Below are positions 1-17,705 of a stretch of DNA of 44,441 nucleotides, in pieces. The first letter of the stretch is position 1, and each line of letters begins with the position of its first letter. Position numbers and translations under genes: made by a program. This DNA comes from a virus (taxonomy: Duplodnaviria; Heunggongvirae; Uroviricota; Caudoviricetes), in the IMG/VR virus record IMGVR_UViG_2778261530_000005; one strand, 5' to 3'. The notes under the pieces were generated by a model. The model had not been told where the DNA came from and did not search any database. It saw only the letters and a list, made by a program, of their open reading frames with translations.

Positions 1-342
1 ATGATGAGAAAAAGTATTCTGGCGTTTCTGTTACTCACCAGTTCTGCAGCTGCGCTGGCGGCACCGCAGGTGATTACCGTCAGCCGTTTTGAAGTGGGTA
101 AAGACAAATGGGCGTTTAATCGCGAAGAGGTGATGTTGACTTGCCGACCGGGTAATGCTTTGTATGTCATTAACCCAAGTACCCTCGTGCAGTATCCTTT
201 AAACGATATCGCACAAAAGGAAGTTGCCAGTGGGAAGACTAAAGCCCAACCCATTTCGGTGATTCAGATTGATGATCCTAACAATCCCGGTGAAAAAATG
301 AGTCTGGCACCGTTTATAGAGCGAGCTGAAAAACTCTGTTAA
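1..342 (+). CDS. yebY: Host periplasmic protein YebY-like, with N-terminal signal peptide
   Basis: 113-aa ORF with signal-peptide-like N-terminus ([20 protein letters not shown]); recognised from memory as YebY; sits outside the prophage repeats next to sdsR, matching the yebY-sdsR-pphA neighbourhood. Confidence 0.7.
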
Positions 343-371: not shown

Positions 372-412
372 AAAAAACCGCCTCAGTTCTTTCACCAGAA
401 CGGGCGGTTTTT
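372..412 (+). terminator. Rho-independent terminator downstream of yebY
   Basis: GC stem ccgcc(378-382)/ggcgg(403-407) with inner gttct/agaac pairing, followed by TTTTT (408-412). Confidence 0.5.
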
Positions 413-499
413 AACATTTAAGCTGATGACCACCACGCTTTTTATTGACCATTTTGCACGCAAACTGGAAAACCTGGCGTCGTCATCTATTCTTAAAGA

Positions 500-603
500 G
501 CAAGGCAACTAAGCCTGCATTAATGCCAACTTTTAGCGCACGGCTCTCTCCCAAGAGCCATTTCCCTGGACCGAATACAGGAATCGTATTCGGTCTTTTT
601 TTA
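500..603 (+). ncRNA. sdsR: SdsR (RyeB) small RNA; its 3' terminator hairpin is the phage attachment site
   Basis: Sequence GCAAGGCAACTAAGCCTGCATTAATGCC...GGACCGAATACAGGAATCGTATTCGGTC plus T-run matches my recollection of SdsR; preceded by a sigma-S-type -10 (CTATTCTTAA, about 486-495); ends in 8-bp hairpin CCGAATAC/GTATTCGG and T-run. Confidence 0.7.
573..603. repeat. attL: left prophage junction, imperfect direct repeat of 43345-43375
   Basis: cgaaTacaggaatcgtAttcggtctTttttt here versus cgaaAacaggaatcgtGttcggtctCttttt at the right end (28 of 31 identical); integrase gene adjacent. Confidence 0.6.
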
Positions 604-733
604 ATTGTATTTAAAATCAATTAGTTGCAAACGTCTCCCCGAAATTCCCCGAAATTTACTCGAATTTCTGTATTCCGGTCTTTTTTGGTTATATCACAAC
701 CAAAATACATTTAACAATCCATTTACGTTAAAA

Positions 734-1810
734 TCAGAGCAGTAAGTACGTTTTTTCTCTCTCATCAAGATACATTTTTGTTGTCTTCTCCGATGTGTGG
801 CCAAGTAGACGCTGAGCAAATTCTTCTCCACATGTTTCTTTGTATAATCGTCCAGCCAGGCTTCTGATCTCGTGAAAAGTTGGTGGGTTTTCACTGAACT
901 GGATACCTGTTAATTTTCTGGCTGCGACAAATTTTTTTGTCAGGCCGTCCGGGTGAATGCTGCCGTCAGGGCTGTTTTTTCTAATCCCGGCACTGATTAG
1001 AAAATCTCCCCGGCTTACCAGGCGGCACCGTTCAACTACTGTACCAAGACGTAAACCAGCGACCGGAAGGCTGAGTGACAGGGGGATAGCAATCATCATT
1101 CCTGTCTTAATTTGCCTGATGTGAAGACGATCATCATAAATATCACTGAACCGCATATTCGTTATGTCTTCGCGACGTTGTCCTGTTACAAGGGCTAAGT
1201 CCATAGCTAATGGGAACCATGCCGGAAGTTGATCTGCTGCCTCCCTGATGCAGTTGTATGTCTTTAGTTTCAGCCGTTCTCTTGTAACTACTATTTTCGG
1301 TGCTCTTGTTGGCGTTACTGGATTTTGAGATATACGCCCTTCAACAATGGCTTCGCGGAACATATCAGATAACACAGAACGCATTGATCCTGCCATCGTG
1401 TTTTTCCCTCCTTCAATCCACAAATCAAGAAACTCGGCAATATGGCGAGTGGTTATTTCTGTCAGTAAGATCCCTCCTAATTTTTCTTTTATTGTTTCCA
1501 GTTGATTTCCCCGAATTTTATAAGTATTTCTGGACACTTTTCTCCTTATAAGAATCGTTTTGTAACGTTCAATCCAGTCTGCCATAGTAAATGAGTCGAA
1601 CCCTTTAAGTTTTTCAATTAAGGCAGCAGGAGAGTAGTTTTTGTATATATAATGATTTGCTTCAATTGCCTGCGCGATTGCATCTCTTCTTGAAATTTTA
1701 CCTAGTGTAAATTCTTCTTTCGTAAGAGGGTTGCGCCAGTAATATGCTTTGTCCCTCCTTCGATATGTTAAGTTCCTAGGCAAATTGGGATCGTATTTTT
1801 TCCGCTGCAT
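734..1810 (-). CDS. Tyrosine site-specific integrase (lambda Int family)
   Basis: 358 aa; N-terminal arm-binding-like region and C-terminal catalytic region resembling lambda Int (…[11 protein letters not shown]…[17 protein letters not shown]); adjacent to attL and transcribed toward it. Confidence 0.9.
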
Positions 1811-2063
1811 GTTTTAACTTCTCCAGTAACGGACTGTCTCTCCCTTGTCGCCCATTAGGCTGATGGTGTGTTATATCGGTATCAACCTTATTTGGGTTGA
1901 TATAGAAAGCCTCCGGAACCACCCTGTAACTCCTCCCGTGTAGTTCAGGTGCAGGATAAATGTTTCCATTCCTTGCCCATCGTCTCAGCGTTGATATTGA
2001 TGGTGGGTTATCCGGATATCTGAGTTTTCCCCACGTTTTGAGTGTCACAAGATTCATTGCCAT
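1776..2063 (-). CDS. Excisionase (Xis/AlpA-like)
   Basis: 95-aa ORF immediately upstream of and overlapping int; basic winged-helix-like sequence (STLRRWARNGNIYPAPELHGRSYRV). Confidence 0.55.
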   Translation of the reverse strand: MAMNLVTLKTWGKLRYPDNPPSISTLRRWARNGNIYPAPELHGRSYRVVPEAFYINPNKVDTDITHHQPNGRQGRDSPLLEKLKHAAEKIRSQFA

Positions 2064-7696: not shown

Positions 7697-8091
7697 AATT
7701 ATCTCCATTTTTACAAATGAATTTTGTCGATGCGGTGCCTGGTGCCTCCAGGTGACGTTAACCAGTTAACAATTAACGCCGGATAATCCACCCATAACAC
7801 TGATGCTTTTAACTGTGCCGCGTGCGCTTAGCCGCATTCACCGCATCACAAAATTCACTTTAAAAAGGGGCGGCAGGGCAGCCACGGAGTAGAACTGATG
7901 CCGCCAAAGACTAGACACAGCAATGTCGTTATTTACAACCGGAGGCGCACTCCCACCATTTAAATTTAACAGACAAGACCGACTCTTTATGAATACCGGA
8001 AATGCGCCTTCGTGTTGTGCGCCTGTCTTTTTACCACTTCAGGCTCGGTGGTATACTGGAGTTCTCACACAACCAGTAATAAGGTATTCCT

Positions 8092-15146: not shown

Positions 15147-15356
15147 AAACGGTTTGCGGGAAAAGGGGAGTTAAGTAAAATTGCTGCGGGTGCTTGAGGC
15201 TGTCTGCCTCGGGCATGCCACTGTAAGGCAGACAGAGAAAAGCCCCGGTTAACATTACGCGTCCTGCAAGACGCTTAACATTAATCTGAGGCCATATCTA
15301 TGCTCTACACACATAGGTTAGCCTCTTACGTGCCGAAAGGCAAGGAGAAGCAGGCT

Positions 15357-15512
15357 ATGAAGCAGCAAAAGGCGATGTTAATCGCCCTGATCGTCATCTG
15401 TTTAACCGTCATAGTGACGGTACTGGTAACGAGGAAAGACCTTTGCGAGGTACGAATCCGAACCGGCCAGACGGAGGTCGCTGTCTTCACAGCTTACGAA
15501 CCTGAGGAGTAA
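15357..15512 (+). CDS. Hok/Gef-family type I toxin (HokD/RelF-like)
   Basis: 51 aa MKQQKAMLIALIVICLTVIVTVLVTRKDLCEVRIRTGQTEVAVFTAYEPEE: single transmembrane helix plus conserved Hok C-terminus; AAGGAG ribosome-binding site. Confidence 0.75.
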   Translation: MKQQKAMLIALIVICLTVIVTVLVTRKDLCEVRIRTGQTEVAVFTAYEPEE

Positions 15513-17435: not shown

Positions 17436-17461
17436 CTCAATCTGTTATCCGGGGCTATATT
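17432..17461 (+). promoter_or_regulatory. Candidate late promoter PR'
   Basis: TTGACT (17432-17437, overlapping the Q stop codon), 18-bp spacer, TATATT (17456-17461). Confidence 0.55.
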
Positions 17462-17522
17462 CCTCACGCGCCAGCAAAATCTGGCGTCGGGATTGGCGTC
17501 CTGGATAGAGACCGCGACAGAT

Positions 17523-17548
17523 ACACGCCGCGAGCGTGTTTTTTATTG
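17523..17548 (+). terminator. Candidate tR' terminator, about 60-80 nt downstream of PR'
   Basis: ACACGC-CGCGA-GCGTGT hairpin followed by TTTTTTATT. Confidence 0.55.
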
Positions 17549-17705
17549 TCGTATGCACGCGCACATCTGAATTATGGTGGGCTGTGTGGGGGCGGAGAGA
17601 TCCGCGCCGGTCGGTTTCCCGGTTACGCCAACCCTGCACAGTTCACCACCAGATGATTGGCGTCGTCGGTGGTGAGTTATTAAGAAACCACCAGAGGGCG
17701 TCATT

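Follow-up and report, generated by a model that had tools for sequence, protein, structure and literature searches.

We describe the integration site of a prophage in a 44,441-nucleotide stretch of DNA (IMG/VR record IMGVR_UViG_2778261530_000005), which is referred to here at its full length as the window. We conclude with high confidence that this DNA holds a mosaic lambdoid prophage of 42,772 bp, which has integrated site-specifically in E. coli into the Rho-independent terminator of the small RNA (sRNA) gene sdsR (ryeB), between yebY and pphA. The order of features along the window is yebY, sdsR and its antisense partner ryeA, the prophage, pphA and then the start of the next host gene. The locus provides a clean example, at the level of single bases, of a phage that uses a terminator hairpin as its attachment (att) site in such a way that the host sRNA stays intact while its antisense partner RyeA is sacrificed.

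The prophage is bounded by a repeat of the sdsR 3' end

The foreign DNA lies between two direct repeats spaced 42,772 bp apart. The left copy (573-603) reads GAATACAGGAATCGTATTCGGTCTTTTTTTA and the right copy (43345-43375) reads GAAAACAGGAATCGTGTTCGGTCTCTTTTTA; they agree at 28 of 31 positions, as a preliminary description of this DNA had stated, and at 32 of 37 when extended to 572-608 (attL, our repeat family D6) and 43344-43380 (attR). Given the base composition of the window, only about 2.9e-5 direct pairs of 31-mers this alike are expected by chance. Rfam places SdsR_RyeB at 503-602, so that the left repeat covers the descending part of the 3' stem-loop and the U-run of sdsR; the earlier assignment of 573-603 to the SdsR/RyeB 3' stem-loop is thus borne out.

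Alignment to an uninterrupted yebY-sdsR-pphA locus, a comparison that had been named beforehand, defines attB and shows that the repeats bound the foreign DNA. In a K-12-like genome (L001) the site reads ACCGAATACAGGAATCGTGTTCGGTCTCTTTTTATCTG and holds a single copy of the repeat. Compared with this empty site, native sequence runs to 603 on the left of the window and picks up again at 43344 on the right, with flank identities of 172/175 and 159/160, respectively; the foreign DNA is therefore bounded exactly by the repeats. The left host flank contains the conserved yebY gene (1-342, plus strand; Pfam DUF2511, E 4.8e-45), which is also annotated as YebY in E. coli BCE049, and the right flank contains pphA (43509-44165, plus strand; Pfam Metallophos, and pphA in the PGAP annotation), which now lies 42.8 kb from the sdsR promoter.

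The repeat is imperfect and the window holds other short two-copy repeat families, so one might suppose that the similarity of the two copies is fortuitous and that the DNA arrived by transposition or homologous recombination with its true boundaries elsewhere. We give this explanation practically no chance. Chance would give some 3e-5 such pairs, the native sequence breaks off and resumes precisely at the repeats, an integrase and an excisionase gene adjoin, and among 5,426 complete E. coli genomes 228 have both junctions. The alignment to the empty site, together with contiguous phage attachment (attP) sequences described below, refutes it.

The crossover maps to the loop region of the terminator

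A three-way alignment of the empty site with both junctions gives attL as ACCGAAT|ACAGGAATCGT|ATTCGGTCTTTTTTTAATTG and attR as TGACGAAA|ACAGGAATCGT|GTTCGGTCTCTTTTTATCTG. Phage-type and empty-site bases differ at two positions, 588 (G in the empty site, A in the phage) and 597 (C and T, respectively). At attL the bacterial T576 stands to the left and the phage-type A588 and T597 to the right, while attR has the reciprocal set; the exchange therefore took place within the 11-bp segment ACAGGAATCGT (577-587), between bacterial T576 and phage A588. This segment consists of the 7-nt loop of the terminator and two bases on either side. The marker pattern of attL is repeated in five other lysogens that we sampled and in 46 attL copies from IMG/VR, the latter retrieved with the A / T7 bases as part of the search pattern; the reciprocal pattern is seen in two more attR copies.

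The attP predicted from these junctions, TTGACGAAA-ACAGGAATCGT-ATTCGGTCTTTTTTTAATTG, is found as contiguous sequence in the phage record PP818812.1 (L003 1760-1810), flanked by the P arm on one side and by the P' arm and int on the other; the int gene of this phage is 98% identical to that of the window. The same attP is also contiguous, with the expected marker bases, in an IMG/VR contig (L033, IMGVR_UViG_2690316286_000019). These two sequences close the set of attB, attP, attL and attR and thus establish the phage origin of the terminator's right half at attL.

Both records have features of their own. PP818812.1 is labelled 'Actinobacillus phage vB_Apl-pPE4', a phage of Actinobacillus pleuropneumoniae; it is 92-98% identical to E. 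coli Rac-like prophage DNA and its attP mimics the E. coli sdsR terminator, and we consider the host label doubtful. The L033 contig carries a 5' fragment of sdsR elsewhere, which turns to unrelated sequence after ...CCATTTCCCTG and may be an assembly chimera or a rearranged junction.

The loop and the adjoining CGTA are unvarying in all 152 sdsR-bearing viral contigs among the matches listed, where variation is confined to the host side of the stem and the U-run. From this pattern the loop AGGAATC (579-585) is the likely overlap region of the recombination reaction. We infer that the two arms of the terminator stem may act as inverted core-type sites for the integrase (Int), by analogy with the anticodon stem-loops of tRNA genes that serve tRNA-targeting integrases.

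An alternative to a phage-rebuilt gene end is that A588 and T597 are polymorphisms of the host sdsR, in which case the insertion lies downstream of a gene that it left intact and nothing is rebuilt. The allele with A and seven U does equal the Rfam consensus and is common in other enterobacteria, and two variant attL copies (L005 and L097) depart from the usual marker pattern. Against this, attR in the same strain still has the G / TCTC allele, the attP of the free phage has A / T7, and identity to the K-12-like site is at least 99% in 5,307 of the 5,426 E. coli genomes. Furthermore, all five other lysogens and all 46 IMG/VR attL copies, with the search restriction given above, combine the bacterial T on the left with A / T7 on the right. 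We therefore judge a host polymorphism to be very improbable and retain the reading in which the phage supplies these bases, which are those of attP in PP818812.1; the replacement terminator half proposed in the preliminary description holds on this evidence.

The variant copies form a small series. In L005 (E. coli ECMA0423) the native G is retained together with GGTTCTTTTTTT, L097 combines the phage-type A and TCTCTTTTT and continues into the same P' arm, and in L004 (Shigella flexneri SFBU1023) the sdsR stem has diverged. This suggests polymorphism of attP within this integrase lineage.

The phage restores the 3' end of SdsR

The sdsR gene at attL is complete (503-603, plus strand) and folds like the native gene. 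The match to Rfam RF00111 (503-602) covers model positions 1-100 of 100 with 118.1 bits, against a gathering score of 38, and begins 160 bp after yebY, in agreement with the rule that SdsR is encoded downstream of yebY (PMC3333887). In our own reading of the sequence, a putative sigma-S type -10 box (cTATTCT) lies at 487-493.

In our reading the lambda-type integrase, together with the adjacent excisionase, recombines attP, which mimics the last ~27-31 bp of sdsR, with the chromosomal copy inside ACAGGAATCGT. Since attP carries the descending arm of the stem and the U-run, attL regains a full-length SdsR of which the last 16-27 nt are phage-encoded. The part that lies beyond the crossover segment, ATTCGGTCTTTTTTTA (588-603, plus strand), is identical to the attP of PP818812.1 and differs from the empty site at 588 and 597. 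The reciprocal product attR receives a phage left arm that does not pair with the original bacterial right half of the terminator, and hence no second terminator arises there: folding of the attR copy gave no hairpin (-4.9 kcal/mol, z = 0.63), consistent with what had been claimed for this junction, and attP is likewise without a hairpin.

The sdsR terminator is an 11-bp inverted repeat with the 7-nt loop AGGAAUC. At attL the hairpin (GGACCGAAUAC/GUAUUCGGUCU) is formed by Watson-Crick pairs throughout and is followed by seven U, which upholds the earlier description of a perfect hairpin with a longer T-run. The native hairpin is likewise complete, with one U.G wobble, which qualifies that description. 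A588 converts the wobble into a U-A pair and T597 extends the U-run from five to seven residues (UCUCUUUUU in the native site vs UCUUUUUUU at attL), while on the RyeA strand a C.A mismatch present in the hairpin with the native allele is gone with the phage allele. The predicted energies of the two alleles are equal, both for the hairpin (-15.8 kcal/mol) and for the whole SdsR (-32.5 kcal/mol), with the same fold; on these predictions the 'perfect' hairpin at attL gains no stability over its native counterpart, and we reject a stronger attL hairpin as a property of the phage allele.

The Rfam consensus of both SdsR and SraC/RyeA is closer to the phage 3' allele (A, U7, AATTAAAAAAAG) than to the K-12 allele (503-606 compared with L001 3003-3106), with 118.1 vs 114.4 bits for SdsR and 180.0 vs 175.1 bits for SraC. 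Either the native allele of E. coli is the unusual one, or the Rfam seeds include loci of the attL type.

It is conceivable that the phage terminator half is adaptive, in that it improves termination and Hfq binding, raises SdsR, and shields int from antisense read-through that starts at the sigma-S promoter of sdsR. The extension of the U-run from five to seven residues would fit, since long U-tails reportedly favour Hfq binding (Otaka et al., 2011); in addition, the K-12 terminator is leaky enough to permit pphA transcription, and int lies antisense and directly downstream. On the other side, the hairpin energy predicted for the two alleles is the same, and other phage lineages at the site supply the TCTCTTTTT form, so that the longer U-run is not a general feature. 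Taken together, we find an adaptive role doubtful.

Probable effects of integration on ryeA and pphA

SdsR is an abundant, sigma-S dependent and stationary-phase specific sRNA that regulates mutS, tolC and porins; its duplexes with RyeA are substrates of RNase III, and the two RNAs have been described as a toxin/antitoxin-like pair. The split of ryeA and the separation of pphA from the sdsR promoter did not feature in the preliminary description.

The 3' ~205-215 nt of ryeA (sraC), antisense to sdsR, remain at attL as a promoter-less body (372-606, minus strand), in which Rfam RF00101 (SraC_RyeA) matches a 145-nt core at 606-462 with 180 bits. In K-12 the RyeA transcript is ~270 nt long and position +10 of ryeA corresponds to +132 of sdsR (Choi et al., 2019), which places the ryeA start ~40 nt to the right of the att core. 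The promoter and start, mapped in K-12 and transferred to this strain by sequence, thus fall in the right host flank: the hexamer of the extended -10 box TGtTATGGT occupies 43425-43420 (L001 3153-3148) and the start lies near 43412-43415. The stranded segment (43349-43425, minus strand; positions from Choi 2019 with the L001 and window sequences) contains the ryeA promoter and the first ~55-65 nt of the gene, 42.8 kb away from the rest and directed into the P arm of the phage. Since the promoter stays at attR, the body of ryeA at attL, downstream of int, loses it.

A bidirectional hairpin terminator at 373-413 ends both yebY on the plus strand and RyeA on the minus strand. Its folding energies are -19.8 kcal/mol (z = -7.1) and -20.0 kcal/mol (z = -4.3) on the plus and minus strands, respectively, and its placement fits the RyeA 3' ends mapped to +261 to +270 (Choi et al., 2019).

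On this arrangement RyeA should drop and SdsR should rise, as with the Salmonella prophage phiW104. The K-12 pphA gene is transcribed mainly through read-through from the sdsR promoter (Choi et al., 2019); in the lysogen it would be uncoupled from that promoter, with 42.8 kb and a terminator with a longer U-run between them. If so, some 4% of sequenced E. coli may have an altered balance of SdsR and RyeA because of this prophage, which is relevant to comparisons of sRNAs between strains.

As a replacement promoter for ryeA we considered a sigma-70-like match that runs from 631 to 604. It agrees at 9 of 12 positions, which is no better than in shuffled sequence, and we rejected it; the region of the P' arm holds two such matches vs 4.3 in shuffled sequence. 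The -35-like hexamer of the match overlaps the candidate site for integration host factor (IHF) described below, and its -10 element varies among relatives.

A more far-reaching effect, which we put forward as a speculation with little probability of being correct, is that SdsR acts in trans to destroy int read-through transcripts in stationary phase, in the prophage state only, such that control of excision would be tied to a host sRNA. The int mRNA would pass through the P' arm into the body of ryeA, and the read-through RNA would hence be perfectly complementary to SdsR, which would then act in the manner of the sib site of lambda. Antisense read-through into int would be held down by the longer phage U-run, and SdsR would increase with the loss of the ryeA promoter. 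If this were true, integration would create a new regulatory circuit beyond the preservation of a gene.

Integrase, excisionase and attachment arms

The recombination genes lie immediately inside attL, 130 bp from the core. The tyrosine integrase gene (734-1810, minus strand) encodes a protein of 358 amino acids, is directed toward attL, and matches Pfam PF00589, PF22022 and PF09003, so that the catalytic domain of tyrosine recombinases, the central domain and a lambda-type arm-binding domain are all present; the last of these, the arm-binding domain, scores 29.7 bits (cut-off 22). Comparison with the lambda Int structure 5j0n gives an E-value of 1.1e-71 over residues 8-353. The excisionase gene xis (1776-2063, minus strand; Pfam PF07825, E 6.5e-14; excisionase in the PGAP annotation) overlaps the start of int.

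The P' arm contains a candidate H'-like IHF site, AATCAATTAGTTG (615-627, plus strand), which fits WATCAANNNNTTR perfectly. Of the 118 distinct P' arms among the matches listed, 33 have this motif 12 nt beyond the T-run and a further one has it at 13 nt; 0.26 arms would be expected by chance, and the other strand of these 118 arms has none. It is followed by two tandem exact copies of TCCCCGAAATT (636-646 and 646-656, plus strand; 636-656 in all), which are candidate arm-type Int sites. A further copy with two mismatches lies in the P arm (43203-43214), and the count of the motif over the whole window is just marginally above that in shuffled sequence. The order of core, candidate H' site, candidate arm-type sites and int mirrors that of lambda attP.

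A degenerate second copy of the sdsR terminator and core, CCGAAATTTACTCGAATTTCTGTATTCCGGTCTTTTTT, lies further along the P' arm (649-686, plus strand; local alignment score 30, reached by 1 of 500 shuffles) and may either have been left by an earlier att site or offer Int an additional site. In the IMG/VR contig L109 a deletion of ~84 bp between the true core and a copy of the 649-686 type has taken out the candidate sites for IHF and for arm binding. An 11-mer of the P arm, AATACAGGAAT (43161-43171), exactly matches the bacterial-type left half of the core (574-584); we rejected it as an extra core-type site, as it is not conserved in pPE4 or in L061 (E. coli Z1323CEC0010), and it is probably a chance match or a local relic.

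Distribution of the site and its integrase clade

In the set of complete E. coli genomes, an intact empty site is present in 5,191 of 5,426, and 228 have the int-xis module. The same attL junction and the same attR junction are each found in 228 genomes (~4.2%), which include O157:H7 strains.

Some split sites lack this int, and we examined two of them. One is an insertion of ISApl1 in L060 (E. coli 17MR471), and the other, in L061, is a different lambdoid prophage that carries the type III effector gene nleG7 and shares the same attR.

A search with the single Int protein as query returned only two close relatives, and the wider clade was instead obtained by scanning viral contigs with a DNA pattern built on the conserved sdsR box. 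This gave at least 152 contigs, whose P' arms are of at least 118 distinct kinds; in at least 137 of the 152 contigs listed, an Int homologue (46-100% identity) is directed toward sdsR. A whole integrase clade across the enterobacteria thus uses the sdsR site, which fits both the 'hot spot' and the 'RyeB' catalogue label found in the literature.

Relation to known systems

The phenomenon as such is already known: the ryeB/sdsR att site, the rebuilt 3' end and the altered ryeA were published for Salmonella in 2008. According to the summary in PMC7380047, phiW104 has the last 23 bp of ryeB as its att site, and its lysogens show less ryeA, more ryeB and a changed 5' part of ryeA. The work of Balbontin et al. 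(2008; J Bacteriol 190:4075) on ryeA/ryeB insertions, as summarised there and cited in PMC3603311, agrees with the earlier statement that the sRNA locus between yebY and pphA is an insertion hotspot. The prophage studied here shares with phiW104, again by that summary, its target in the last ~23 bp of ryeB/sdsR, internal to ryeA, and the duplication of the 3' end; it differs in its host, E. coli, and in the two bases that set the native allele apart from the phage copy, and it is because of these two bases that the crossover can be mapped to 11 bp. To the published picture our analysis adds this base-level map, which puts the E. coli crossover in the region of the terminator loop, an attP that was sequenced independently, a figure for how often the insertion occurs in E. 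coli genomes, and an explicit account of how the ryeA promoter and pphA are displaced.

The resemblance to lambda extends to a full-length Int homologue with an arm-binding domain, an excisionase of the Xis family, an int gene beside the P' arm that reads toward att, and a candidate IHF site by the core followed here by tandem repeats that are candidate arm-type sites. In contrast to the attB of lambda in the gal-bio intergenic region, the target here is the terminator of an RNA gene, and attP and attB share a longer stretch of homology (~31 bp, imperfect), which rebuilds the end of that gene. This last property is shared with the integrases that target tRNA and tmRNA genes (P4, P22 and the ssrA prophages; Williams, 2002, as cited in PMC3603311), which likewise use the 3' part of a structured RNA gene and carry a replacement 3' end on the phage, with a symmetric stem and a 7-nt loop as the probable crossover site. 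Here, however, the structure is the terminator of an Hfq-dependent sRNA, and an sRNA on the opposite strand is disrupted while the first is restored.

Genomic islands have been catalogued by the target 'RyeB', such as Cfr111.52.RyeB (PMC10111431), and ryeB has been listed as a hot spot (Bobay et al., 2013; PMC3603311). These catalogues place prophages at sdsR/ryeB in several enterobacterial genera, matching the at least 118 P' arms found here; they consist of entries only, without a junction-level analysis in E. coli. Our literature searches on this site in E. coli itself likewise turned up general surveys only.

Prophage content and present state

The body of the prophage (588-43348) was characterized from the PGAP annotation of an identical region in E. 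coli BCE049 and from Rfam matches, and its two parts have different affinities. The early region is Rac-like, with ralR/RalA, recT, recE, kilR, DicF, ydaSTV and hokD/sok, and shares ~93% identity with Escherichia phage Rac-SA53. For the late region the identity is ~97% to induced myoviruses such as vB_EcoM-611R5 and ~81% to Salmonella phage SEN34. The remaining genes encode lysis functions (holin and lysozyme), terminase, portal, head, a contractile tail of the tail-sheath type and baseplate.

Several points weigh against parts of the account given above. PGAP flags a partial tail protein and a frameshifted open reading frame, and the present inducibility of the prophage is uncertain because of these tail pseudogenes and a truncated invertase. 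The IHF and arm-type sites are candidates recognised from their sequence pattern, and the assignment of the loop as the overlap region likewise draws on such a pattern. The effects on RyeA, SdsR and pphA are extrapolated from K-12 and Salmonella, and the sigma-70-like match at 631-604 could partly replace the lost ryeA promoter.

The first of these points raises the question of whether the element is a decaying remnant, locked into the chromosome, whose att sites are historical scars and whose capacity for integration and excision has been lost. Besides the N-terminally truncated invertase, the partial tail protein and the frameshifted reading frame, related copies with a frameshifted int (L007) or a deletion in the P' arm (L109) would be in keeping with decay. 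The window, however, has intact int and xis genes, two intact att sites and intact head, tail and lysis genes that make up a full set, and a sequenced phage record has a 98% identical int together with the attP. We consider a locked-in remnant unlikely, though of the alternatives discussed here it is the one we take most seriously; it bears on present activity only and leaves the origin of the structure, site-specific integration into the sdsR terminator, unchanged.

The invertase gene, of the Pin/Hin type, lies near attR (42670-43044), and the N-terminal catalytic part of its product is gone (Pfam Resolvase, 85-144 of 145). The tail-fibre switching module appears to have decayed.

Rfam RNAs inside the prophage comprise RalA, DicF, sok and an isrK / C4 / c4-a1b1 cluster (2168-2346, 7868-7919, 15188-15362, 17455-17653). 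All are known regulatory RNAs; RalA is the antitoxin of RalR, and sok is accompanied by hokD. The isrK / C4 / c4-a1b1 cluster, which adjoins a gene with an ORF6N domain, is typical of antirepressor control of the P1/P7 and Gifsy types.

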